Virus record (IMG/VR): IMGVR_UViG_3300046517_000746
DNA from: an uncultured virus (IMG/VR IMGVR_UViG_3300046517_000746)
Lineage: Duplodnaviria > Heunggongvirae > Uroviricota > Caudoviricetes
DNA: 64,000 nt
Direction: 5' to 3' (one strand)
Positions 8,603 through 23,225 of the stretch are shown here, one piece after another; the stretch's first letter is position 1, and every line of letters starts with the position of its first letter. The translations under genes and the position numbers were made by a program. Under the pieces are notes generated by a model. The model was not told where the DNA came from and searched no databases. It was given only the letters and a program-made list of their open reading frames with translations.

Positions 8603-10738
8603 ATGGCACAAGTTCCATATCAAGGCTATCCAGAACAGGGCGTTCAAGACGTTCCTTTAAAGGTTAGCACCACTACTGGTGCCTTTGGAGGTAGTATAGC
8701 CGAGGGCGTTTCTAGCGTTGGTAAGTCCATGCAGCACGTCGGTGACGAGCTTTGGGATCGTGCTCGTGAGATAAAGCAGCTTGAGAACAAAGCCATCAAT
8801 GATGAGGCCGCTGCACAGTATTCAACATACATCGGTGAGAAACACGCTAAGTACGAGACAAAGCAAGGCCAGGCGGCTGCTGAGGGCTTAGATGCACACG
8901 TTGCCGATATGAAGGCTGAACGGGAGCGGATGGAAGCTACGCTGCCTAATGAGACGGTCAAGAGGGAATTCAGAGGCACCACCCTCAATATGTATAGTTG
9001 GGGCGTTAGGCACGCTGCTGGTCATGCTGCTACGGAACAGAAGAAATGGGGCAAGCTCGCTGGTGACGCACGGAGTGATGCTGCTGAGCAACAGACGCTA
9101 CAAACTCCAGAAGATGATGATGCCTTCAATAAAGGTCTTAAGGTAGCCGAGGATGTAATAAGGGCCGATACTACTATCACTGACTTCGGCCCTGAGCATA
9201 CTGCCCATATGCTATTTAAGAAGAAGAGTGAGATGTGGGCCAATCGAGCGATGATGCTCTCTAACAATAACCAAGAAGCTGGCGCTGCTATGTTGCAGCG
9301 GATGAAGACAGACCAAGTTGTTGATCCTAGGGATTACGAGAAGGCAGAGAAGTATATACAGAACCAGGTCCATACCGTAGTGAGTAGGAATATCTCCGAG
9401 GCGGTTAATGGAGGCTTCGCCCCGTATATGGGGCAGAGTGAGATCATCAGAGCACAAGGGGTTGACTCGTCATTGGTTGAGGTTTTCAAGCAGGCTCAGA
9501 GAGACAATCCTGATCTTAGAATGACTATTGGTGGTCAAGGTGGTAAGCGTACACTAGAGGAACAAAAAGGAATTTTTGCACAGGGGCGTACTACTCCTGG
9601 GAAAATTGTTACCTGGACCCTCGATAGCGACCATGTCAAAGGCAGGGCCTTGGACGTTGTACCGAAGGACAAATCCACAACGCAAGAACAAATCACAGCC
9701 GCTATGCAAGCGGCTAGTGAGAAGTTAGGCATCCCTCTTGCTGTGGATGAGGCTCTTAAAGCCAAGGACCCCGATCATTACGCTCTTCCAAAGGAGTACG
9801 ATTCGACAAAATTCCAACGTCCTGCGGATGAGACCTCGGCATCTAAGCAACAGAGGGCGAGAGAGTATGTAAGAACTCAGTACCAAGACGATCCTAAGAT
9901 GATCTACTCAGTTGGCGATAGGGTAAGAGCGGATAACGATCGGCAGATTGTTGAACAACATAAAGAAGAGCAACAGAGATTTCTACGGGTGGCTGACTAT
10001 GTCTACGGTGTAGGGCCTGATGGGCAGAAGATAACAAATCAAGATCAGCTTGTCAATAACCCTGTGATGTTCGGAATCTATCAAGGCATGGAGGAGCCTG
10101 GGAGGAGAAGGATTGATAACATTATTAAGGCCAATGCCAAAGAACCCACTGCGGAGACTGCGGAGAAAGCTGTCGCAACGCAGAAGGTTCTTGACATGTC
10201 AACGGAACTTAGTGGGAGAAGAGAAGCATTTATGAAGATCGACCCTGCTGAGTTGTTAGATAAGGGAATAGTATCAACCAGTGGCATGAAGACGATAGCG
10301 GCTAAGCAGCGTGAGATACTTAATAACCAAGCCAAGGACAATCATCGCTTATCCACTGCAATGAGACTTTCTCACAACTACCTTAAAGCGAACAACATCA
10401 TCTCCGGCTCGGAGGAAGAAGCCTCATTCATGGGTGCTATGAATCAATGGCTACAGGAACCAGAACGGGAGAAGAAGGCTCCTAGAACGGATCAAGAGAT
10501 CCTCGATAAGGCCAAGCAGCTAACAGAGACCTATGGTGCTACCAGCCTTGGCTTGTTCTCAATCGGTGGAAGATTTGGATTTGTTCCACCGAAGGAGTTC
10601 ATTAACGACATCACACCTAAGTTCAAGACTGATCCTAGGAACGTAACAAAGCGAGATCCAAAGCCAGAAGAACTCTCTCGGTTCTGGGAATACTCCCAGT
10701 CTCATCCTAACTGGCGTAAGGAGTTAGGTTATGAGTAG
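8603..10738 (+). CDS. Internal virion/ejection protein (gp15 position) containing an M15-family peptidase domain
   Basis: Helical protein with internal RTLEEQ...AQGRTTPGKIVTWTLDSDHVKGRALD...DPDH (SxH-x6-D, DxxH zinc motif). Confidence 0.75.
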   Translation: MAQVPYQGYPEQGVQDVPLKVSTTTGAFGGSIAEGVSSVGKSMQHVGDELWDRAREIKQLENKAINDEAAAQYSTYIGEKHAKYETKQGQAAAEGLDAHVADMKAERERMEATLPNETVKREFRGTTLNMYSWGVRHAAGHAATEQKKWGKLAGDARSDAAEQQTLQTPEDDDAFNKGLKVAEDVIRADTTITDFGPEHTAHMLFKKKSEMWANRAMMLSNNNQEAGAAMLQRMKTDQVVDPRDYEKAEKYIQNQVHTVVSRNISEAVNGGFAPYMGQSEIIRAQGVDSSLVEVFKQAQRDNPDLRMTIGGQGGKRTLEEQKGIFAQGRTTPGKIVTWTLDSDHVKGRALDVVPKDKSTTQEQITAAMQAASEKLGIPLAVDEALKAKDPDHYALPKEYDSTKFQRPADETSASKQQRAREYVRTQYQDDPKMIYSVGDRVRADNDRQIVEQHKEEQQRFLRVADYVYGVGPDGQKITNQDQLVNNPVMFGIYQGMEEPGRRRIDNIIKANAKEPTAETAEKAVATQKVLDMSTELSGRREAFMKIDPAELLDKGIVSTSGMKTIAAKQREILNNQAKDNHRLSTAMRLSHNYLKANNIISGSEEEASFMGAMNQWLQEPEREKKAPRTDQEILDKAKQLTETYGATSLGLFSIGGRFGFVPPKEFINDITPKFKTDPRNVTKRDPKPEELSRFWEYSQSHPNWRKELGYE

Positions 10739-13700
10739 CATGTTCGACAGTGTTTTTAGCACTGATGAAAAGCCTCCTGATGACATGTTCTCATCTGTCC
10801 TAAGCCAATCGGCACAGCAATCCGACGCAAGGCTTAAGACGATAGATCTCGATCCAGCTGCTGCATCGAAGGCGGCTATCACAGCTAGGGATTTGAACGT
10901 CAGTCCGAATGCTGTAGCGCAAGATCCAGACCACTTCAATAAGGTTCATGATACATCCATCGCTTCATCGATAGTCCAGGGCAGTCAGTACCTCAGAGAC
11001 TACGTCAATGCCCATCCGCTATCGGCCAGCATCTCAGCGGATGATTGGCCGATGCTACATCAGTTCGTTAAGTCCGCGGAGAAGTTTAGCCCTTCGGAAT
11101 TCGGTGCTCAGGTACGCAAGTTCGAAGAAGCCACTGGTCCTATTGCTGGTGGGGAGATCTTAGGGTCATTTGTTAAGACCTTCTTCTCGACCATGTGGGA
11201 TCACAAGGTTGGTGAGTGGCGCAATCGTGATCCCAGGTTCATGGAGTATGATCGATTTGGTGGATGGGCTCTTCTTGGTGTGCCGATTGAGGCCGCTGGG
11301 GCTGTTCTCGACTCTGGTATGAAAGCCCTTGATGCTAGCTCCACCGAGTTCGGTAAGCAGATGGGTTGGGATGACCAGACAGTTGAGCAGTTTAAAAGAA
11401 ATTTTATGGGCTTCGTCGAGTACAAGGTAATAGAGCCCTCGCATACGCTTCATCTATCTGAACAGAATACTATCAGGCTTCAAGCGGATCAGTTCAAGAA
11501 GGTCATCCAGCCCTATCTAGAGAAGGGAGAACCTATCCCTGTTGGTACGCATCCTATTACGGATAAGATTGCGGTGGAGCAGGCGAAGCTGGATGCGGAT
11601 AACCTAGCAGAGGCACTGAAGGACGCCGCTAAGTCAGAGACCCTTAAGCTTGATCCGGATCACTTCTCGGATAACCTCGCAGATAAGATAGTTAAGGACG
11701 TAGACGTTGGCATTACCGCCGAGTCGCTTAGAAAGACCTTTGGTGAGAACCTCCCTGAATGGATAGAGGGAGCAGAGGATCGGATCATCCATGCTGAGAA
11801 ATCCAATGGAGATCTTCAAGTCCCATTGAAGGACGTGCTTGCGCATCCGGATGATATGAAGGATCTAGTGCCCAGCACTAGGGTGCGTCCTAACGCCATG
11901 ACCCTAGAGGAGTCCAAGCTTCACTCGGAACAAGAGACAGCGAGGAAGGAGGTTCCGGAGCATTTGAGTTCTGGTGATGCTACTGTTGATATGCTTAGGA
12001 AGGAGGCTGGGTTAGAGCCGACGTTTGATGATCAGAGATTGCAGAAGCTAAGGCTTGTACGCGAGGCAGTCGATCAAGAACTCGAAGCCTTTGATCGGGA
12101 ATTTCCTGAAGTTGGGCACCATTACTTTGATATAAACGATGCCCAAGATACTAAAGTTGGAAGGATTTCTCTTCAAGAACAAGAAGGCGGTAAGCATCTA
12201 CATATTGATTGGATTGGTGAAGCAGGAAACGCTTTCTTATCACGCCCAAATGCCTTTGGTCCTCGTGTTGTTCGTGATTTATTAGCACAGCTTAGACAAG
12301 AATTCCCTGAAGCAGAGACTATTGGTGGAATGAGAGTCTCTGGCGCTAGAGAGGTAGCTGAAGCCCCAGAGCGTGGTGTTAAAGTCAGACTCGACATGGC
12401 CACTAACGCTGAGCTCGAGAAGTTCATTAGTAACTTCAGACTTGGAATGTTACCCTTTCCAAAGGGCTCTATCCTTACTCCTACGAAGCATCTGGAAGGT
12501 GGAAAGGCCTATGAGTCCTTGGCTAAGTTCAGGCTTAGTAGTGGTATAGATGCACTACCCCCTGAAGCCTTAAGGGAGGTTCCAGAAGCTCTTCGTACAC
12601 TGTTTGCAGGTAAGATAAAGCAGTTAGCTGGCGATACTATGGTACACGTTATCTCTAGCTCGGACTTCGATTACATACATCCCGGTGGGGCTCATGCCTT
12701 CTATAGTGCTACTAATCATAAGATAATAATACGAGATACAGCAGCTGCATTGAGCCCTTCAGCCTATGCACATATGTTACTACATGAAGGTGGTCATGCT
12801 GCTACTTACAGGGCTATGCTCACTCATCCTGAGTTGATGGAGAAGCTTGAAAGCCTACGCCTCTTTATTAAAGATAGAATAGACCGCTTAGGAGATGATC
12901 GAGTCTCAGGAGTTATGTCTTATGGTCTCTCTAAGTCTTGGGAGCTACTGGCTGAATCGTGGTCTAATAAACACTTCCAAGAAATCCTTGCTGGTATCCA
13001 GCTAGACTCACACATGAGGCAATTCCTAGATCTTCCACCTAAGTCCAAGACCTTATGGGATGCGGTTAGAGAGATAATAAGTCAGGCCATTGAGAAGGTA
13101 CTTGGTAAGAGACTGGATGATACTGCCCTCGATGCTATCCTGAGCTTCGGTAAGGACTTCGAGAAGATCCACGCTGTGGAAGGGGAAGGGTTAAGGGTGC
13201 GCGGTGGGGCAAAATGGGAGGCGTTCTTTAAAACCACGGCCGATCCAGCCTTAGCTCGACCGGAGATGGCCAAGCGTCCAGAGAAGCGTCCATTAACAAA
13301 AGAAACGGTCTCTAAGTATGAGGAGGCTACGAAAGCGTTTTACAAGCAACGTGATGAAATTCAAAGTCGTGGTCAAGAGCGAAGTCAGCAAGCTGCTGAG
13401 GCCCGTGAAGCAGGGGATATAGAGGGTAGTCGTAGATTAGCAGGTGAAGCAGAGAAGCTTAGGGAGCAATGGGCTAGTATGGAGGCTCCTAAGATAGAGG
13501 ATTTCATTGAGCCTGTACCGAGTGAGAAGGAAGCAAAGCCAGGTGAAAAGCCCTTCACCCCAGCGCCAGTTGGTTTCACTCAGAAGATGCATGACAACTA
13601 CCTCAAGGCACTCGACCAACTCGCAGATGGAGCCAACGAAGCCAAGCGCAAGGCTTACATGGATAACGCAAGGAAGCAGGAAACCTCGCTTTGGAAAGAC

Positions 13701-16700
13701 GAGAAGAAGGCGGTTCGTGAAGACGTGGCAGCGCAGTTGAATAACCATCCTGTCTTCAAGCTCGACGAGATGCTCCGTGGTGGGACGAAGGTCCTGACTG
13801 AAGGGCTGACGGATGCTCAGATAGCGGCGTTGCCTAAGAAGAACGTTACAGGATACAAACGTCAAGGTGGGGTATCGATTGATGACCTTGCTAAGGTTCT
13901 AGATGTAAGCTCTGGCAATAAGCTGATGATCGACTACATGGCAATGCTCGATGAACGCAATGCCTCAGGACACAAGTACAAGGAGTACCTCAACCGAAAG
14001 ATCGACGCAGAGACCGAACGGCAGATGGAGTTGCAGCATGGGGACCTGAGCCAGCGGATTACCGAACGTGCGTTGGATCATATCTTCTCTGAGGAACAGG
14101 AGCGGATACTATCTGAGGAGACGTTGCGCTACGCTATGAAGGCGGGGAAGAAACCAATACCTAGGGAACAGATAAAGGCTGAGATCCAACAGGACCTTAG
14201 CGCTGAGTTCATTAAGGATATCAAGTCCAAAGACTTCATGGCCAACGGTGCTAGGGAAGCTAGGTTGGCGGAGGAGTATGGTATCAAAGGAGATCCTGCC
14301 AAGGCCTTTCAACATGCGCAGAATAGAGAGTACGCCTATTACAAGGCTCGGTTGGCAAGAGAGTATGAGAAGGAGAAGGCTCAGCTTGATAAGAAGTTGA
14401 AGGTGTTGAAGGAGAGGGAGCTACAGAAGACTATCTCGCAGGAATACCTTAACGCTGCCCATACGATTATGATGAAGCTGAACATCCCAGTTGATCGGCT
14501 CCCAGAGGATCTAGTCAAGGAGATGCAAGGCATAGGGCAGAAGGGTCTTGCTGATTGGGTTACCCAGAAGGAAAAGGATCTAGCTGTTGAGGGGATTAAG
14601 TTTGATATACCTGACTTCCTGCTCGATCCTGACTTCAAGACAAACTACAAGGACCTAACCCTGTGGGAATTCAATGGCGTTAAGCAAGGCATCGACCTTC
14701 TAGATCACCTTGGGAGGGAGGAGAAGAAGGCTAAGTTCGAGGGGCAGAAGGTGGTGCTTGAGGATCTTGTTGGTAGGATGAAGGAGCAGATAGAGAAGAA
14801 GTTCTCATTCAGGGACGAGCCAGCGACTAAGGGGAAGATGTCCGGACTTGGGGATCTATACAAATCTGCGTTAGCTGCTTCAACAGGAATGGAGACGGTG
14901 TTCTTTAGGTTTGATGGGAGGGATTTCAATGGGCTCTTTACCAAGACATTTACTTACCCCGGTGCTGAGGCAGCAAATTACCTAGCTCGATTGGAGCGTG
15001 AGTTCGGTGCGGAATATGAGAAGTTAGGTGAGATCCCAAACATGAAGCAGCTTCTCGATTCACCATTGAGACAGGCAAATGGTAGGCCATTGAAGAACTT
15101 CACTAGGGCTAATCTTCACGCTATCATTTCCAATATGGGAAACGATTACAACTGGAGAGTCTTCACAGAGGGATGGAGAGTTGATCCCAAGGTCCTTTGG
15201 GATTGGGTTATTGAGAACTCGACCAAGGAGGATTTCGATAGAGCCCATGCGCTATCAAAGATCTTTGGCAAGGCCAAGGGAATGTCTGATGTGGTGTATC
15301 GAAACCTATATGAGATAGCTCCAGAGAACATTCCAGTACGGCCATTTGAAGCACATGGAAAGCAATACCCTGGTTGGTACCATCCTATCATTCGTGATCC
15401 ACTTAGAAGTAAGCTCGACCTATTAAAGACAGCCGATCCGTTAGAGCAAGGGCCTACGTCTTACTGGCCCTCTCCACCGAATTCATATGTTAAGCGTCGG
15501 ACCGGAGCTATTGATGTATTGTCTCTGACCTATGATATGATTCCATTGGAGCTAAACAAAATCCTCAACGACGTTGCAATGCGGGACTTCATATATAACT
15601 CCAGGAAGATTATCCGTAATGGCGAATTCCGTACGCTTATTAAGGACCATTACGGCATGGAGTATATACAAGAGATGGATGCATGGCTTGCGCGAGCCGC
15701 TGGACAGAATTCATACAACTCCAAAGCCATGGCAATAGCAGCACATTACTCAAATGAGATACGAAGGAACGTTGTCACAACACATATTGCCTTTGGTATT
15801 GGCACCGTACAAAAGCACGGTGCCACTGCATCCATTATGTCAGCTAGAGAGCTAGGGCCAAACACTCTCTTTGGTGCCGCTAAGATAGCTAAGCTCGGCG
15901 GAGAGATTGGGGCTAACTGGATTTATCATGCGGTTACAGATCTATTCGGGAAGGACCCATATCTAGGTGAGACGTTGTCGAAATGGATTGATGATAACTT
16001 CGAAGAGATCCAACGGCGTGAGCGGAATTTTCTAGATTCAGTAACGGACTATCATAAGAAGTATGAGGATAAATCTAGCATACGTAACCTAATTGCCTAT
16101 TGGGGTTCTAAGGCAGTTGCGTTCTCAGATAAAATCTCTGCTAAGCCTTTGGTTCTAGGGGCGTATAGAAAGGCATTGCAGGAAACGGGCGATCATGGAT
16201 ATGCGGTGAGCGTAGCTAGCTTCGCTGTTCGTCGTGCGCATGGATCGACAGCGGTTACTAGCCTGCCTAGGATTGTTACAGGCAGTGGCATCATTGAGCC
16301 CTGGATGACTACGTTGTATACCTTCCTTGGTGCTAACATGCAACGACGGATAGAGATTGCGCATGATGTCAATGACATGTACAAGCTTGGTCGAGAAGGA
16401 GAGTTGAAGGCCGCTGCTAAGGCACTGCCTGGGATAGTTGACTCGTTCATGGCGAATGTGATCTGGGTTGGGGTTGTTGAAGAATTCGTTACGCATCAGT
16501 TCACTGACGATCATCGAAGTGGTCTTCAGCGAACGCTATCGTTCTTCTTTCATACCCTAACGAATGCCACTATTGGTCTGAAGGATTTCGTGTGGGGTAT
16601 AACGCATGGCAAGGATCCACAGCTGGGCCTAACCGGTGCGCCGCTGTCGGAGCTCCATGAATTGATAAGGGACTTCGGAAAGCCAGGGGGTCCGATGTCT

Positions 16701-16895
16701 AAGCAAAACGCTGGGAAGTTTGTTGAGGATGCGATATCAGTAGCGGGCGACTTGACAGGCGTAGGACCAAAGCCAGTTGGTCGTGCGATGCATTATGGGA
16801 TCGACGTTCTTAACCGACAACAGAGACCCCACGGTGGTAGTGATCTTTATCGTGGAATATTCTCAGGTAAGCAACAGCCACATGTGACAAGGTAA
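10731..16895 (+). CDS. Giant internal virion/ejection protein (gp16 position, 2054 aa) with zincin-like HExxH domain
   Basis: Size and position; LLHEGGH at ~12777-12797 with downstream ELLAE. Confidence 0.75.
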   Translation: MSSMFDSVFSTDEKPPDDMFSSVLSQSAQQSDARLKTIDLDPAAASKAAITARDLNVSPNAVAQDPDHFNKVHDTSIASSIVQGSQYLRDYVNAHPLSASISADDWPMLHQFVKSAEKFSPSEFGAQVRKFEEATGPIAGGEILGSFVKTFFSTMWDHKVGEWRNRDPRFMEYDRFGGWALLGVPIEAAGAVLDSGMKALDASSTEFGKQMGWDDQTVEQFKRNFMGFVEYKVIEPSHTLHLSEQNTIRLQADQFKKVIQPYLEKGEPIPVGTHPITDKIAVEQAKLDADNLAEALKDAAKSETLKLDPDHFSDNLADKIVKDVDVGITAESLRKTFGENLPEWIEGAEDRIIHAEKSNGDLQVPLKDVLAHPDDMKDLVPSTRVRPNAMTLEESKLHSEQETARKEVPEHLSSGDATVDMLRKEAGLEPTFDDQRLQKLRLVREAVDQELEAFDREFPEVGHHYFDINDAQDTKVGRISLQEQEGGKHLHIDWIGEAGNAFLSRPNAFGPRVVRDLLAQLRQEFPEAETIGGMRVSGAREVAEAPERGVKVRLDMATNAELEKFISNFRLGMLPFPKGSILTPTKHLEGGKAYESLAKFRLSSGIDALPPEALREVPEALRTLFAGKIKQLAGDTMVHVISSSDFDYIHPGGAHAFYSATNHKIIIRDTAAALSPSAYAHMLLHEGGHAATYRAMLTHPELMEKLESLRLFIKDRIDRLGDDRVSGVMSYGLSKSWELLAESWSNKHFQEILAGIQLDSHMRQFLDLPPKSKTLWDAVREIISQAIEKVLGKRLDDTALDAILSFGKDFEKIHAVEGEGLRVRGGAKWEAFFKTTADPALARPEMAKRPEKRPLTKETVSKYEEATKAFYKQRDEIQSRGQERSQQAAEAREAGDIEGSRRLAGEAEKLREQWASMEAPKIEDFIEPVPSEKEAKPGEKPFTPAPVGFTQKMHDNYLKALDQLADGANEAKRKAYMDNARKQETSLWKDEKKAVREDVAAQLNNHPVFKLDEMLRGGTKVLTEGLTDAQIAALPKKNVTGYKRQGGVSIDDLAKVLDVSSGNKLMIDYMAMLDERNASGHKYKEYLNRKIDAETERQMELQHGDLSQRITERALDHIFSEEQERILSEETLRYAMKAGKKPIPREQIKAEIQQDLSAEFIKDIKSKDFMANGAREARLAEEYGIKGDPAKAFQHAQNREYAYYKARLAREYEKEKAQLDKKLKVLKERELQKTISQEYLNAAHTIMMKLNIPVDRLPEDLVKEMQGIGQKGLADWVTQKEKDLAVEGIKFDIPDFLLDPDFKTNYKDLTLWEFNGVKQGIDLLDHLGREEKKAKFEGQKVVLEDLVGRMKEQIEKKFSFRDEPATKGKMSGLGDLYKSALAASTGMETVFFRFDGRDFNGLFTKTFTYPGAEAANYLARLEREFGAEYEKLGEIPNMKQLLDSPLRQANGRPLKNFTRANLHAIISNMGNDYNWRVFTEGWRVDPKVLWDWVIENSTKEDFDRAHALSKIFGKAKGMSDVVYRNLYEIAPENIPVRPFEAHGKQYPGWYHPIIRDPLRSKLDLLKTADPLEQGPTSYWPSPPNSYVKRRTGAIDVLSLTYDMIPLELNKILNDVAMRDFIYNSRKIIRNGEFRTLIKDHYGMEYIQEMDAWLARAAGQNSYNSKAMAIAAHYSNEIRRNVVTTHIAFGIGTVQKHGATASIMSARELGPNTLFGAAKIAKLGGEIGANWIYHAVTDLFGKDPYLGETLSKWIDDNFEEIQRRERNFLDSVTDYHKKYEDKSSIRNLIAYWGSKAVAFSDKISAKPLVLGAYRKALQETGDHGYAVSVASFAVRRAHGSTAVTSLPRIVTGSGIIEPWMTTLYTFLGANMQRRIEIAHDVNDMYKLGREGELKAAAKALPGIVDSFMANVIWVGVVEEFVTHQFTDDHRSGLQRTLSFFFHTLTNATIGLKDFVWGITHGKDPQLGLTGAPLSELHELIRDFGKPGGPMSKQNAGKFVEDAISVAGDLTGVGPKPVGRAMHYGIDVLNRQQRPHGGSDLYRGIFSGKQQPHVTR

Positions 16896-18234: not shown

Positions 18235-18450
18235 ATGCGCAATGTTCTGTTCTCCCTTATCCTGCTCACGTCGATAGATGGAAAGCCGATCTGGGTTGAG
18301 AGCACAGCGGTGGTTGTCATCCGTGCGCAGTCGCATGAGTGTGCATCAGGACACGGTGCGGTGATTAGGGTTGGGAGTAACGCCTTATGTGTTAGGGAGA
18401 CACCGGATGAGATACGTGAGAAGGTAAGATTAAATGAGCCTAAGTTTTAG
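18235..18450 (+). CDS. Small hypothetical protein (weak FlbD/SwrD-like pattern)
   Basis: LTSIDGKPIWV...VRETPDEI. Confidence 0.55.
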   Translation: MRNVLFSLILLTSIDGKPIWVESTAVVVIRAQSHECASGHGAVIRVGSNALCVRETPDEIREKVRLNEPKF

Positions 18451-19681
18451 GCAGCGCAATAAACCGTCGAAGCCCGGTGGACTTATCAACACCTATCGAC
18501 TTGATAAGGCCAGCGTTCTCCATAAGCTTGATGGCGTTAGTGCAGCTATGGATAGGGATGCGCTCCTTGGCGAAGTTCATGACCTGATGTTCGTGAAGAC
18601 CTTTCGTTCCACCCCCTACGAGTATGAAGTGGTAGATTTCGTCCATCGCTTTTGCATCCGCAAGGTTGCCTCCGGCTTTGAAGATCTCAGGCATAAAGAT
18701 TTCTGCCTCTATTAACCATTCCATTGCACGGTTGAAGTCTTCCATCGTTAGGAGAAGGCTATCGCCTTTGTCAGCGGAGGAGATCATGCAGAGCTTGAGT
18801 AGGTGGGTTGAGCGCCGGGTGTTGTAATGCAATAGCTTCGGGTGCGTCGGGATGGGAAGCTGCCCTGTGGTCCTCCATCTATTCATAGCTTCTTTGAAGT
18901 CTTCCGTTATAGCAAAGGCACCATGAAGTAGGTGTATCCTAGCGATGTCAGATAGCATATCCACTGGTAGCTTGCGTTCACGGATAGCAAAGAGATCCCC
19001 TATGATCCGCTCGTCAGAGAAGATCATTATGATCCTAGAGGTCAGCCCCTGATCCCATGCACCCTCTGGCATGAACTTCATCAGGTTCGAGGGGGTAGTG
19101 CCTGAGAGGATGGAGAGTTGTGGGTTCTTGATCTTGATCTTGATGTCCTTTCCTCTTCTCCGCTGGCCGTATGGAACGACTACGTCGTAGAAGGTAGTGA
19201 GGCCACCGATAAGTTCTGGATCAAACGTGTGCATGAAAGCTGTTAGCTCATCGGCGTAGATTGATAGAGAGTAGAAGTCCTCCGGTACCATGCTATCATT
19301 CATCACCGTTCGCTTGGCCTCCAGCATACTATCCACTAGCGCCGCCATTGTCATTGAGGTTGGCGCTATGTGAAAGTCAGGGAGGTCGTTGACAAAGCTT
19401 CGGGCTTTCATTATCGTTCTGGTCTTCCCTACCCCTGGGTGCCCGACCAAGAAGACATATAGATTAGGATAAAGATATCCATCAGTCCAAAGATGAACCT
19501 TCTGCTCTAGCACAGCGCCAATAGTAGAGATCGCCGCCCACTTGCGGTAGATGGGTGCTGACTCTATACCTGCTGAGTTCTCAATAAAACTCTCTATCCA
19601 AGATTGACACTTCCGGAGTGCGCCTCCGTTGATCACCCTGGACATAGGCCTTGAGACCATCTGGATTTTTCTGTCCATCAA
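18440..19681 (-). CDS. DUF3987/YfjI-type P-loop ATPase (putative replicative helicase)
   Basis: YPNLYVFLVGHPGVGKT Walker A, SIYADE Walker B, GLTSRI; follows the polymerase. Start codon uncertain. Confidence 0.75.
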   Translation of the reverse strand: MMDRKIQMVSRPMSRVINGGALRKCQSWIESFIENSAGIESAPIYRKWAAISTIGAVLEQKVHLWTDGYLYPNLYVFLVGHPGVGKTRTIMKARSFVNDLPDFHIAPTSMTMAALVDSMLEAKRTVMNDSMVPEDFYSLSIYADELTAFMHTFDPELIGGLTTFYDVVVPYGQRRRGKDIKIKIKNPQLSILSGTTPSNLMKFMPEGAWDQGLTSRIIMIFSDERIIGDLFAIRERKLPVDMLSDIARIHLLHGAFAITEDFKEAMNRWRTTGQLPIPTHPKLLHYNTRRSTHLLKLCMISSADKGDSLLLTMEDFNRAMEWLIEAEIFMPEIFKAGGNLADAKAMDEIYHFILVGGGTKGLHEHQVMNFAKERIPIHSCTNAIKLMENAGLIKSIGVDKSTGLRRFIALPKT

Positions 19682-21068
19682 ACTTCCCCCAATTCCAGCC
19701 TACCTTGCAGTCGTAAGGGATTAGGAATTCCCTTCCGTGACTTAGTTGGATTGGGTACCTCAACTGCTTGAGGACTTTAGGTATGATTTCATCTTCCTCT
19801 TCTTCCGGGTATTGGATTAAGATAGCATCGTGGATTTGCATTAGGAGTTCCGCATCATGATGTAACCAAACATTAAGCATGCCGTGGTTAAGTATATCAG
19901 CAAGGCTCCCTTGAGGATCATAAGCGATTGCTTCTCGTAGAGTAGAGTCATCATCACGCCTACCAAAAAACCAACGCTTGCGACCGAGGAGGCTGATAAT
20001 AAATCCCACAGATCGGAGTTTATGTTCAACATCTTGGTGCCACCTTAGGTGTGCAGGGAAGGCCTTGAAGTATAGCGGCTGAAACTCCTCGATAGCACGT
20101 CGGTCAACCTTCGCCTGTTGTGAGAGAGTAGTAGCCTTGCCTCCGTAGTTTGTACCATGTCCGATTTTCTTGCACATGAACCGACGATCGTAATGTCGGT
20201 AATAAGGTAGCTCTGCGAACGTACGATCCTTAGCAAGATCGTTCGTCCACGGGAGCCCGGGCCAACATATCTTGGCAACAGTAGTGTGTAGATCACCAGT
20301 TTCACAAGCATCCAGATAGCTTGCATCCTCGAATAGGTTCCACTCGATTGCTCCAACAACACGGCTCTCTCCTTGTTCTGCATCTAGGTACGCCATCTTC
20401 ATCCCTTTATCTGCGACGAAGACACTACGTAGGATTTCTTCAATGTTCTGGAGATTAGTTCCAGTTCCAAACTCGCTGAATGAAGAGCTAAAGCGACCTG
20501 TAGTGGTTCCGGCGATGTTATACGATGTTCGCATTCTACCGTCAGGGTCAATCTCGGTTTTGAGCATTGAGATTTTCTTACCAAGCTCTCGTAGCGCTTT
20601 GATATGTGTGACAATTGGTTTGGCAATGAGGTAGGACTCCAGTCGTTCAAGAGCATCTCTATTGACTGTTGGCCTCCCTTGCCTAGTGATGGGTGGAATT
20701 TTAAGTTTATCATAGAACAACTCCATAAGGTTAGGGTTGCTACGCCAGTTGAAGTGATCCATCCCCACGCCTTCGAACACCAAGCGCTCGAGATTGCGTT
20801 CGAGGAGATCGATCTTACGATAGTAGGCTTCAATAACTTCTGCCTTGCGAAATTTATCGATCTTCACCCCACGCAATCTCATATCCAAGACCGGACCTTG
20901 GAGTTTTCTGGAAAAAGTGTAGGTTTTTAAGGTATGATAGTCTAATTGAGGAAGAAGAGCATCGAGGACCTCGGAAGTGATGCAGCAATCGAGGCCGTTG
21001 TAGATCCAATCCCTCTCTGTTGGTGGGACAGAGAGGGGGTCGAGGTTGTGGGTTTCGATGACTTTCAT
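19581..21068 (-). CDS. polA: Family A DNA polymerase (ExoIII plus polymerase domain; C-terminal half of a split enzyme)
   Basis: YNGLD ExoIII, TTTGRFSS, motif A DAEQGESR, motif B RFMCKKIGHGTNYG, motif C QIHDA. Confidence 0.92.
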   Translation of the reverse strand: MKVIETHNLDPLSVPPTERDWIYNGLDCCITSEVLDALLPQLDYHTLKTYTFSRKLQGPVLDMRLRGVKIDKFRKAEVIEAYYRKIDLLERNLERLVFEGVGMDHFNWRSNPNLMELFYDKLKIPPITRQGRPTVNRDALERLESYLIAKPIVTHIKALRELGKKISMLKTEIDPDGRMRTSYNIAGTTTGRFSSSFSEFGTGTNLQNIEEILRSVFVADKGMKMAYLDAEQGESRVVGAIEWNLFEDASYLDACETGDLHTTVAKICWPGLPWTNDLAKDRTFAELPYYRHYDRRFMCKKIGHGTNYGGKATTLSQQAKVDRRAIEEFQPLYFKAFPAHLRWHQDVEHKLRSVGFIISLLGRKRWFFGRRDDDSTLREAIAYDPQGSLADILNHGMLNVWLHHDAELLMQIHDAILIQYPEEEEDEIIPKVLKQLRYPIQLSHGREFLIPYDCKVGWNWGKFDGQKNPDGLKAYVQGDQRRRTPEVSILDREFY

Positions 21069-21631
21069 CGTTTTGCTGTGCGTCCGTACCACCTTCTTGC
21101 ATCACGGAACCCACTCTCGGTCGGAGTGGCATAGGCCCCAGGCTCTTCACCAGCGCGCCTTTCTTTACTCTCAGCACGTAACTCTGCCATCTCTTCAGAT
21201 TGTGAACACTCTATGGATCGGTTCCACCTTGGCGGCTTGTATGTGATATCCAAAGGCATTAGCTTTAAGAGTTCTTTCTTGCCTTTCTTTATATCATCGT
21301 TTATCCTAGCTACCTTCTTTCCATCGCTGGGCAACTCATATCTAATAGCAACGTCGATATTGTCTGTGAAGATAACCTTTAGGAGTGAGTTGGTGGTTTG
21401 TGTAGCGTAGACTCCAGGTAACCGCCCTACACCATTATCTTGTATGCATTTACTTAGATGGCCAGCCGTACCACCCTTACCCTGTGATCCCCAAACATCT
21501 TGTTTATCAAGATGTGCTGTAAGTTCTTCTGTAGCATCTATCACTTGTACTTTCCGTTTTTCTCGTGTGCGTGGATCAAGAATTTGCTCGAAGAAGTGTG
21601 GAACGTTCTTAAGATAACGTGGCTTTCTCAT
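21065..21631 (-). CDS. Hypothetical protein between the two polymerase halves
   Basis: GGAG SD; stop overlaps the polymerase ATG (ATGA). Confidence 0.65.
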   Translation of the reverse strand: MRKPRYLKNVPHFFEQILDPRTREKRKVQVIDATEELTAHLDKQDVWGSQGKGGTAGHLSKCIQDNGVGRLPGVYATQTTNSLLKVIFTDNIDVAIRYELPSDGKKVARINDDIKKGKKELLKLMPLDITYKPPRWNRSIECSQSEEMAELRAESKERRAGEEPGAYATPTESGFRDARRWYGRTAKR

Positions 21632-21646
21632 CGTAGTCTCCCTTGG

Positions 21647-22663
21647 TTAATCGTCACTCTTGATTGTCGCTACTCGTCTCATTTGCTTCCAATTCCCTTC
21701 ATCAGTGTAGACACTCCCAAGAAAGCCGAGCGACTTTAAGCTCTCCGGCTGTAAAGCATGATGAAGAAGCATAGTGTCATGTTCCGCTCCCCATACCTTC
21801 ATCCCTACCGATCTTCTGATGAAGGCAATGTCATAGAGGCCGTTCTGGAACGTCTTACGTATTGACTTGTCTTCGAGAATATCTTTGACAAACTTCCAAG
21901 CTCTTTGCTCACTCTCTGCATTTCTCCAGAAATTCTTTCCCAATCGTCTGCCATCAACAAAGGGGACGACGAGTGCAATTCTAGGATTGGGGGCGAAACC
22001 AATGCACGTAATTTGGTTTCCAGCTGTTTCAATATCAACAGAGCATCTTCCACAACCATTAATGTAGCGTCGTTTGAACTCATGGAGGTCCTCTATCGTT
22101 GGTTGGATCCAGATGGTTCGTTCTGGTCTTCGGATGTCAGGGAAGAGTGCTTCTCGCTTTGCCTTGAGGAAGTCCATGATAACCGTTGGTCGCAGTCCCC
22201 ATTGACGAATGACAGCAGCGGGATGGAAGGTGGGAAGGACCTTATATCCAGTTGCTGTATGAGTAGAGAGTTGAGTCGTGCCACGTATTGCAGATATTCC
22301 TGTCTTACCCAACATGGCCCAAACAGCAGTATTGCCCAAGGCAATGATGATATTAGGGTTAACTTTAACAACCTCTTCCCCCAGCCTCTCCAATTCCGGG
22401 ATGTATTGTGCTTGGACATACTTCCCCTTCCCTAAGCTTGGAAAGCCTCTAATAGCTTCTTCCTTTGGTCCACAGAGAGCTTCAATCTTATTATCCGCTG
22501 GCCGCAGGTTGAATACATTAGTAAGGAAGCAGTTCGCCCTTTCAATTCCAGCCTCGTCCAGCATCCGAGTGAGTAGGTACCCTGAGGGACCAACAAATGG
22601 TGCTCTTTCGATCTCTTCTCTTTCTCCGTAGGCTTCACCGATGATGAATATGGCATTTTTCAT
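21647..22663 (-). CDS. Uracil-DNA glycosylase (family 4-like) fused to ExoI/ExoII of a 3'-5' exonuclease (N-terminal half of split PolA)
   Basis: IIGEAYG, PFVGPSG, TNV, ALG and TFHPAA UDG motifs; SVDIET ExoI; FQNGLYD ExoII; HDTMLLHH. Confidence 0.88.
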   Translation of the reverse strand: MKNAIFIIGEAYGEREEIERAPFVGPSGYLLTRMLDEAGIERANCFLTNVFNLRPADNKIEALCGPKEEAIRGFPSLGKGKYVQAQYIPELERLGEEVVKVNPNIIIALGNTAVWAMLGKTGISAIRGTTQLSTHTATGYKVLPTFHPAAVIRQWGLRPTVIMDFLKAKREALFPDIRRPERTIWIQPTIEDLHEFKRRYINGCGRCSVDIETAGNQITCIGFAPNPRIALVVPFVDGRRLGKNFWRNAESEQRAWKFVKDILEDKSIRKTFQNGLYDIAFIRRSVGMKVWGAEHDTMLLHHALQPESLKSLGFLGSVYTDEGNWKQMRRVATIKSDD

Positions 22664-22681
22664 ACTTTCTCCTAGTTATTA

Positions 22682-22752
22682 GCAGCCGGGGCCAGGGTTG
22701 GTGGTGGGTGGGCATGACCCCGGCTGCCTTAGGCTACAGGAGGACCCTGTAG
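22682..22752 (-). terminator. Two hairpins between the SSB-like gene and UDG-exo
   Basis: GCAGCCGGGG...CCCCGGCTGC and GCTACAGG-AGGAC-CCTGTAGC stems. Confidence 0.4.
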
Positions 22753-22754
22753 CT

Positions 22755-23225
22755 TTAGTCTTCTGCGACAGGTGCCGTCGAAGTTAGTTGGGCAAAGATA
22801 CCCGTACCATCCTGCGACGGAACGTGTTTGAGTGTAGCGAGGACCTGACGGTTCTGCGCTTCACCTATCAATTGACGGATCTTCTTCTTTCCTTCTGTGA
22901 TTTGAAGGTCGTTGATGAGAAAGTCCTTCAATCTGTAGAGAGAGTCTTCAGTAAGGTAGAAGGTCGCACGGATGCGCTTATCAGCTAGTGCCTTGACACT
23001 TCCGTCACCGCTGGTAAGGGCAGTTTGAAGATCGTTTTCATTCACGTCATCAAGTGCAGCCATGGGCTTCAAAGAGTACTCGATGAACTTCGTACCCTTC
23101 TTAGAGGACTCACCTTCTCTATATTGCCCATCAACAACACATTGATACGTCCCTGGAGGTAGCGGCTTGGGGCGTTCAACTTCTGAAGACGGTTTATCGA
23201 GGATTGAGCTAAACGTGTCGGCCAT
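22755..23225 (-). CDS. DUF669-like single-stranded DNA-binding protein
   Basis: KPLPPGTY...SSKKGT...FYLTEDSLYRLKDFL; follows the Sak4-like ATPase; GGAG SD before ATG 23225. Confidence 0.6.
   Translation of the reverse strand: MADTFSSILDKPSSEVERPKPLPPGTYQCVVDGQYREGESSKKGTKFIEYSLKPMAALDDVNENDLQTALTSGDGSVKALADKRIRATFYLTEDSLYRLKDFLINDLQITEGKKKIRQLIGEAQNRQVLATLKHVPSQDGTGIFAQLTSTAPVAED

Follow-up and report, generated by a model that had tools for sequence, protein, structure and literature searches.

A phage family A DNA polymerase divided within its proofreading domain, with a variable gene slot at the seam

Introduction

Does a DNA polymerase whose proofreading domain is divided between two genes still act as one enzyme, and what is the unrelated gene that lies in the break? 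These questions are raised by a 64,000-nucleotide stretch of DNA from an uncultured virus of the Caudoviricetes (IMG/VR record IMGVR_UViG_3300046517_000746), referred to below as the window. Within 22663-19581 of the window, three co-oriented open reading frames (ORFs) are located on the minus strand: the N-half gene of a split polymerase (21647..22663, 338 amino acids (aa), assigned by Pfam, phrog_17 and the 36-sequence alignment A5), the 188-aa ORF2 (21065..21631, pI 9.56, with its own ribosome-binding site), and the C-half gene (19581..21068, 495 aa, comprising ExoIII and the thumb, palm and fingers, assigned by PF00476, phrog_17 and its MKII start). An initial annotation, made without database searches, had read these genes as a heterodimeric polymerase with an exonuclease site assembled in trans, the break acting as an insertion site or hosting a third subunit. 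The overall explanation that is quite probable is an ancient fission which gave rise to a two-chain enzyme, with the seam between the two genes as a cargo slot and ORF2 as cargo.

The divided polymerase

The C-half gene is identified as a family A DNA polymerase by profile and by conserved catalytic residues. PF00476 (DNA_pol_A) matched it with an E-value of 1.3e-38 and 133.4 bits against a cut-off of 34.3, over positions 13-380 of the 381 of the profile. The gene also covers positions 459-886 of the Pol I profile, and its own profile matched the structures of Taq, Bst and Klenow with E-values from 1e-28 to 5e-31. The polymerase motifs YLDAEQGESR (20361-20390), RFMCKKIGHGTNYGG (20139-20183) and QIHDA (19824-19838), all on the minus strand, are those which we take to be motifs A, B and C. 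The N-half and C-half alignments (A5 and A6) consist of 36 sequences of about 50-80% identity, with a mean column identity of 62%, and all statements of invariance below refer to them. The polymerase residues D229, R296, K300, G303, H304, N307, G310, H413 and D414 of the C-half are invariant.

The N-half gene begins with a uracil-DNA glycosylase (UDG)-like domain of the family 4 type (residues 5-157; 22193..22651, minus strand), which was matched by PF03167 with an E-value of 3e-20 and 73.2 bits against a cut-off of 24.3. Two more specific models scored below their cut-offs, TIGR00758 with 89.8 bits (cut-off 125.3) and the archaeal type-4 UDG model with 81.1 bits (cut-off 250). The UDG-like motifs GEAYGE (22622-22639), PFVGPSG and TNVFNLRP (both within 22193..22651) and FHPAA (22214-22228) were located on the same strand. 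The first of them (consensus GEAWGE) differs from the GEGPGE of solved enzymes, and the HPA motif is retained. Profile matches to solved family 4 UDGs and UdgX begin at chain residue 36-67, which means that the N-terminal stretch of the stand-alone enzymes is absent.

The UDG-like domain is followed on the minus strand by the ExoI motif VDIETAG (22019..22039; D210 and E212) and the ExoII motif QNGLYD (21830..21847; N274 and D278), with D210, I211, E212, T213, Q273, N274, G275 and D278 invariant, and the gene then ends with the tail TIKSDD and a TAA stop. The ExoIII motif YNGLD (20988..21002, minus strand; Y23 and D27) is found in the C-half gene, where Y23, N24, G25 and D27 are invariant. The DEDDy signature, made up of ExoI DxE, ExoII NxxxD and ExoIII YxxxD, is thus complete but divided over two genes. 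DNA_pol_A_exo1 (PF01612) matched residues 248-315 of the N-half over profile positions 57-123 of 173, and because the domain is partial, the score of the N-half alone (22.7 bits) falls just below the cut-off of 23.6. The domain is not contiguous in one polypeptide, as it is interrupted by the stop at 21649-21647 and restarts at 21068.

The position of the cut was located by comparison with the fused polymerases of Mel-JY34 (Microcystis phage, 810 aa) and MW202489 (Manatee Spring phage, 779 aa), in which the break aligns between a WK motif and W-YNG. The N-half ends just past the conserved WK and the C-half starts about 20 residues ahead of W-YNG-D, while the Pfam exonuclease domain of Mel-JY34 (residues 208-369) spans the aligned break. 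The 36-sequence C-half profile pairs with the Klenow chain 1d9d_A from profile position 19 and chain residue 170 onwards, and YNGLD (Y23 and D27) is placed at what we take to be, in Klenow numbering, Tyr497 and Asp501 of ExoIII. By these alignments the cut runs through the 3'-5' exonuclease domain, between ExoII and ExoIII. Against the phrog_17 profile, the N-half matches positions 547-800 and the C-half positions 809-1232. Since the two matches run on from each other, the polymerase is complete but cut, with no sequence missing.

At the upstream junction, the N-half stop TAA (21649-21647) is followed by AAGGGAG (21644-21638) and the ATG of ORF2 (21631), and at the downstream junction an ATGA overlap couples the stop of ORF2 (21067-21065) to the polymerase ATG at 21068. 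The open frame of the C-half spans 21092..19581 with a GTG at 21092, upstream of this ATG, and alignment with relatives assigned the conserved MKII start (peptide MKIIxT) to ATG 21068 instead of the GTG. The region 19400-22800 was found exactly in an IMG/VR contig of another sample, and both junctions were bridged by contigs of four further rhizosphere or soil runs, chosen to exclude the possible source run, with 0 differences and no alternative joints. The split is not an assembly artefact.

In these respects the initial annotation was accurate. The three minus-strand ORFs stand at the positions it gave, with UDG, ExoI and ExoII followed by a stop in 21647..22663, ExoIII at residues 23-27 of the separate polymerase gene starting at 21068, and the 188-aa ORF carrying its own Shine-Dalgarno (SD) sequence (AAGGGAG) and coupled to the polymerase start. 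The assembly error that it had considered as a way to overturn its reading is contradicted by independent sequencing runs reproducing both junctions.

Conservation of the split among relatives

The survey of relatives covered the best 80 of at least 554 related IMG/VR stretches together with earlier loci and three GenBank phages. Among the 85 loci compared, 4 end before the second half and 81 hold both halves, which are split at exactly this junction in 79 and fused in 2. The 79 split loci are 49-100% identical to the N-half gene of the window, except for Caulobacter phage Kuura (41%), and the 2 fused loci are outgroups with 34-35% identity. Seven loci found later were also split, raising the count to 86 of 86 relatives with at least 41% first-half identity, and the further outgroups (vir526, a Desulfofustis phage) were fused, giving four fused distant relatives in all. 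The split loci include three genomes of 49-52 kb with a CheckV completeness of 99-100%. Kuura was described as a plaque-forming podovirus; the split is unmentioned in the available portion of its paper, and the N-half is labelled a hypothetical protein in its record. In this phage the pair Kuura_029 and Kuura_026 corresponds to the two halves, and the seam insert consists of Kuura_027 and Kuura_028. This distribution indicates that the fission is ancient.

Breaks at other places were found in the same polymerase family. The polymerase of MW202554 (Manatee Spring phage, L094) is cut about 35 residues past ExoIII, and in the UDG-exonuclease-polymerase gene of Vibrio phage vB_VspS_VS-ABTNL-3 (L092:2462-5596) the break follows GLNLQNLP within the polymerase domain, the gap holding a 184-aa ORF (PVS_28). 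Taken with the break of the window type, these indicate that the polymerase family has been broken three or more times, each time in another position.

Two further irregularities were observed. At L012:740-960 (IMGVR_UViG_3300010233_001711), stops and a frame change before YHTLATYNF form a second break about 20 residues past ExoIII, near the split site of MW202554; it may reflect another fragile site of the gene or an error in sequencing. In MW202554 itself, the polymerase pieces are separated by a gap of 151 nt (L094:2987-3137), one frame of which contains a CxxC...C pattern (PVQNARGRH / CPKCEGQ type) and may represent a decayed zinc-finger ORF.

A putative two-chain enzyme

D210, E212, N274 and D278 of the N-half and Y23 and D27 of the C-half are all invariant. 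Because the catalytic residues are invariant in both halves, a heterodimeric polymerase with an exonuclease site built from both chains is the best reading of these sequences. The fission would have hit the loop that immediately precedes the ExoIII helix of the 3'-5' exonuclease domain. The N-half and C-half would then be translated separately and assemble without a covalent link, and the DEDDy site would draw D210, E212 and D278 from the N-half chain and Y23 and D27 from the C-half chain.

The seam as an insertion slot

The gap between the two halves varies widely among the 79 split loci, being at most 6 nt in 26, 29 nt in 1 and 134-1010 nt in 52. Clustering of the 52 inserts by tblastx resulted in 32 classes, 20 of which are singletons. 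HNH_3 was detected above the Pfam cut-off in three insert classes (L009 and L075 in one class, L035, and L073) and below it in the insert of L012, an HNH-like ORF at the seam, while DUF3102 was found in one insert and the remaining inserts are without family. On a FastTree phylogeny of 60 concatenated polymerases, the insert class has switched no fewer than 33 times, and inserts have been gained or lost no fewer than 14 times. Pairs separated by a branch length of at most 0.02 differ in their insert, and six classes (ins1, ins3, ins4, ins5, ins7 and ins9) recur on distant branches. Judged from these comparisons, the seam is a hypervariable slot in which unrelated genes, HNH homing endonucleases included, have been repeatedly inserted and lost.

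Neither target-site nor flank duplications were seen at the insert ends. A duplicated N-half tail ahead of the polymerase start was considered as a feature of the inserts and rejected, as the mean best identity was 0.442 against 0.453 at control positions and none of 43 loci stood out.

The nearest relatives of the window, L013 and L014 (81% identity), are without insert. The junction of L013 reads GACGACTAATGAAG, and the window has a cassette of 578 nt there (21069..21646, minus strand; a 15-nt leader with AAGGGAG plus ORF2, as delimited by this comparison), placed exactly between the N-half stop and the C-half ATG. Since the break is present without insert in 26 of the 79 relatives, it was not created by ORF2. 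ORF2 would be one cargo of the slot, a precisely placed cassette with its own ribosome-binding site, whose stop overlap would keep translational coupling to the polymerase.

The end of the N-half gene was found to be conserved as well. The tail TIKRD[DE], encoded by ATCAAGAGGGACGA, is nearly invariant in relatives (the corresponding place in the window is 21650-21667), and its DNA contains an SD-like sequence, AAGAGGGA, 8-9 nt before the downstream start. The tail is still conserved at loci where an insert follows, and in the window the SD-like sequence is weakened to AAGAGTGA. The tail may double as a protein contact and as a ribosome-binding site for whichever gene follows.

The ORF2 family

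Sequence searches placed ORF2 in a small family. ORF2 and its relatives gave no match to Pfam, PHROG or NCBIfam, and ORF2 gave no tblastn match in phage GenBank records. A word-indexed search of 5.8 billion clusters returned two relatives with 71% and 67% identity, and a profile search of 1.84 billion representatives returned 20 at an E-value of at most 0.001, of which 19 are real; the other, P0012 (2117 aa), is a low-complexity repeat protein whose match is spurious, and it was dropped from the family. The family proteins that were looked up are metagenome singletons. In contigs of Joint Genome Institute (JGI) metagenomes, a first scan found no family member, and a scan with P0013 gave one spurious match of 42 residues inside structural genes. 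No match was found in viral contigs with the family alignment A8, nor by single-protein scans with P0022 and P0018.

An AlphaFold model of ORF2 built from 22 sequences reached a pLDDT of 83.3 and a pTM of 0.76, featuring a mixed beta/alpha core and a basic helical tail, whereas folding from 3 sequences only had given an unusable model (pLDDT 38.5). Comparison with the Protein Data Bank (PDB) by Foldseek gave nothing at an E-value of at most 0.001 (best E 0.31), and the best hit of a wide VIA-align search, a coronavirus nsp8 chain with Z 2.7, is meaningless at that level. Three matches at an E-value of at most 0.001 were obtained in BFVD, all uncharacterised small phage proteins. In the ESM Atlas, the best feature score of 0.88 came with a low shared count and a structure TM of at most 0.35, providing no lead. 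ORF2 is hence a confidently predicted fold with no solved relative among these structures.

Two further phages carry a gene of the ORF2 family at this seam, namely L050 (30% identity, pairwise E 2e-8) and L097 (38% identity, E 6e-32). Their polymerases are about 60-66% identical to that of the window and stand elsewhere on the tree. The window groups as sister to L013 and L014, both without insert, and the sister of L050, L051, has an insert of another class. A family that keeps to one site yet is patchy on the tree is more readily explained as a selfish, site-specific element than as an obligatory subunit. From this distribution, ORF2 is most likely a selfish or accessory protein, basic, probably nucleic-acid-binding and specialised to the seam, rather than an obligatory subunit.

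Alternative explanations

The reading of a two-chain enzyme has to be weighed against a rejoining of the halves as one polypeptide or mRNA by a group I intron, split inteins, translational bypass or frameshift, for which it speaks that introns with endonuclease ORFs are described as common in phage polymerase genes (PMC10580990) and that, from their coordinates, the N-half gene (ORF1) and ORF2 share a frame. Against it, the stop and start persist in insert-free relatives, usually as an overlap (TAATG, ATGA or GTGA), with a stop-to-start gap of -4, -1, 0, +1, +2, +4 or +6 nt, and such a varying frame relation argues against programmed frameshift or bypass. The C-half start codon and MKII head are conserved: ATG or GTG occupies the aligned start in 68 of the 79 loci. 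Among the 11 exceptions, an ATG stands one codon further upstream in seven (GCT or GCC), and the remaining four, including Kuura with its start annotated as TTG, reflect offsets of the alignment. In 20500-22300, Rfam gave nothing at threshold, only two chance-level rows (E 2-3) from unrelated families. No Hint or intein domain was found in the halves by Pfam, and the unaligned tail of about 12 residues and head of about 20 are too short for split inteins. Rejoining is thus extremely improbable, and the spliced or bypassed single polypeptide, which the initial annotation had named as a refutation, is disfavoured by the lack of an Rfam intron at threshold, by the varying frame and by the conserved start codon. 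It is also very improbable that the halves no longer cooperate, the C-half being an exonuclease-deficient polymerase and the N-half an independent UDG-like protein, since ExoI and ExoII in one gene and ExoIII in the other are invariant, which is unexpected for a dead site, the two genes are always adjacent and coupled, and family A polymerases are stated to need the exonuclease domain for stability (PMC10201439, Discussion). The proposal of a heterodimer with a trans-assembled exonuclease site is supported comparatively by the invariant residues and by the split, which the survey of split points suggested in the initial annotation found conserved in every close relative.

The same annotation had left the break as either an insertion site or the host of a third subunit, and the two fared differently. 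The former is strongly supported by 32 insert classes spread over 52 of the 79 loci, the class changing no fewer than 33 times on the tree. The latter holds that ORF2 is a third subunit or accessory factor, for example for processivity or assembly, placed between the halves for a fixed proportion. It would agree with the ATGA coupling to the polymerase start, the basic nature of ORF2 (pI 9.56), the occurrence of family members at the same seam in three diverged phages and the extra DNA-binding subunit of the split PhiKZ polymerase (PMC13648687), although the available text of that paper does not place this third subunit between the halves. The idea was not borne out, because the seam is empty in 26 of the 79 relatives, including the nearest at 81% identity, and in other relatives holds HNH endonucleases or small ORFs that are unrelated, with 31 classes other than that of ORF2 occurring at the same place. 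With the ORF2 family patchy on the tree in addition, a third subunit is regarded as improbable. A sharper form of the cargo reading, in which ORF2 is a homing endonuclease or mobility protein of a new, site-specific kind targeting the insert-free seam, is doubtful, although it stands well above the third subunit in likelihood. It would accommodate the recognised HNH homing endonucleases at the same seam in other relatives, the six insert classes recurring on distant branches, the patchy family that is nevertheless at the seam in all three of the three retrieved contexts, and the conserved acidic D32 and D112 together with the basic C-terminal tail of ORF2. It is opposed by the failure to detect an HNH, GIY-YIG, LAGLIDADG or PD-(D/E)XK nuclease family or fold in ORF2, a missing match with which a new nuclease would still be compatible, and by insert ends free of target-site or flank duplication. 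Moreover, most seam inserts are small ORFs without nuclease signature, so that recombination between conserved flanks could move the cargo with no enzyme dedicated to the task.

Several points weigh against the overall explanation favoured here. The GC content of the insert (0.461) equals that of the flanks (0.469 and 0.470), so composition gives no sign of a recent arrival. The presence of the family at this seam in all 3/3 retrieved contexts also fits a polymerase-associated accessory protein, and as no recognisable nuclease motif or fold is present in ORF2, the label of a selfish element is left to its distribution. The conservation counts come from a survey limited to the best 80 of at least 554 stretches, and the tree omits 19 truncated loci. 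A more far-reaching form of the cargo reading is offered tentatively, as a possibility that falls well short of being probable: the seam of a split essential polymerase would be a dedicated, translationally coupled cargo slot exchanging genes faster than the polymerase evolves, and ORF2 would represent a seam-specialised family with a new fold, either a homing or mobility protein or a modulator docking on the exposed exonuclease termini.

Phage context of the window

The window holds the replication module of a podovirus-like phage of about 50 kb from soil or rhizosphere. Tail, internal-virion, lysis and replication genes occupy about 3.7-34 kb at a GC content of about 0.50, and terminase, portal and capsid genes occupy 35-42 kb at 0.54-0.58; both blocks belong to the same phage type of about 50 kb, the terminase being 78% identical in a complete relative of 51.8 kb. 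Beyond about 52 kb, where the GC content is about 0.60, lie a second capsid gene (phrog_334) and one gene each for head closure and the tail, none of which occurs in those relatives. The window (1-64000) therefore seems to hold more than one phage, as adjacent prophages, a concatemer or a chimeric assembly. The longest contig of the cluster of ORF2 has 90,224 bases. A scan of genome contigs gave only short contigs of metagenome-assembled genomes and one weak archaeal UDG match (L104), with no host assignment.

On the 3' side of the polymerase, a DUF3987/primase-like gene (18440-19681, minus strand; phrog_14296, E 1e-40) has a longest frame that overlaps the polymerase 3' end by about 100 nt. 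The same overlap of about 100 nt was seen in L005, and the true start of the gene probably lies further downstream. A plus-strand ORF of 2054 aa (10731-16895), which follows internal virion protein genes and matches only phage families of unknown function (phrog_9880, E 5e-81), may encode a giant ejection or internal protein.

Significance and comparison with known systems

Split phage polymerases and split genes invaded by endonucleases are already known. In the literature, subscription journals aside, no report was found of a family A polymerase with its break between ExoII and ExoIII, nor of comparable insert turnover at a polymerase seam. The present locus would extend family A fission from the inter-domain cut of T7-like cyanophages to an intra-domain cut in the UDG-PolA group, and it offers a natural experiment on how much division a DEDDy proofreading domain tolerates before its function is lost: four carboxylates and a tyrosine of one site are invariant on two chains in a clade diverged to about 50% identity. 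As this clade includes the culturable phage Kuura, the two-chain idea is testable. The seam in turn is a dense natural record of insertion and loss at one defined site (32 classes, 79 loci), useful for understanding how free-standing endonucleases and small genes colonise phage genomes, and it supplies candidates, the ORF2 family included, for mobility or polymerase-modulating functions. Annotators may easily overlook the N-half, as happened in Kuura.

Several systems resemble the locus in the arrangement of genes. The halves of the split gene 43 in Aeromonas phages 25 and 44RR co-purify and are active, and the seam between them is occupied by a seg homing endonuclease or an untranslated spacer. 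Edgell et al. 2010 (PMC2988022) remark that the gene may have been split before the endonuclease invaded it. As in the window, a replicative polymerase is encoded by two genes with differing seam inserts in related phages. In contrast, gene 43 encodes a family B enzyme, its split is reported from few phages against more than 80 loci here, and the available part of that paper describes no turnover of dozens of insert classes. In OM43 phages MEP401 and MEP402 and in VS-ABTNL-3, phages of about 43 kb (PMC10580990), a small ORF of unknown function likewise lies between polymerase pieces, but the cut is inside the polymerase domain (in VS-ABTNL-3 after NLQN) and the ORFs in their gaps show no relation to ORF2, which has no match in phage records. 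In fractured genes with split inteins (Dassa et al. 2009, PMC2677866), two gene halves flank a homing endonuclease gene. Their protein is ligated by split-intein segments, whereas the window has only the short tail and head described above and no intein domain.

The family B polymerase of PhiKZ is a proven stable 1:1 complex of two products whose polymerase site is shared by both chains (PMC13648687). It differs from the present enzyme in its family, in its cut at a palm insertion and in an exonuclease site lying wholly in one chain, and the genes of gp82 and gp50 are not neighbours, judged by their numbering.

The closest systems in domain composition are the UDG-PolAs of the N4-like cluster 17, SPO1, SP-10 and SP-15, which likewise carry an N-terminal family-4-type UDG before the exonuclease and polymerase domains (PMC10201439). 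They are single polypeptides, while the clade of the window forms a separate podovirus group, whose nearest named relatives are Kuura, Mel-JY34 and the Manatee Spring phages. The window gene was linked to the polymerases of Bacillus SPO1-like phages by phrog_17 and tblastn, with 21-27% identity.

Czernecki et al. 2023 (PMC10201439) described UDG-PolA fusions and also, in T7-like cyanophages, a fission that they called the first in family A. The split T7-like PolA of S-SBP1 and S-TIP37 is encoded, like that of the window, by two adjacent genes after fission, with the proofreading residues in the N-terminal gene and the halves expected to reassemble (PMC10201439, PMC12695635). However, the cut in these phages is located between the exonuclease and polymerase domains of an enzyme of the T7-like subfamily (cluster 5), and their genes overlap with no insert. 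The polymerase of the window is cut before ExoIII, inside the exonuclease domain, carries a UDG-like domain, groups with the UDG-PolA lineage and bears variable cargo at its seam.

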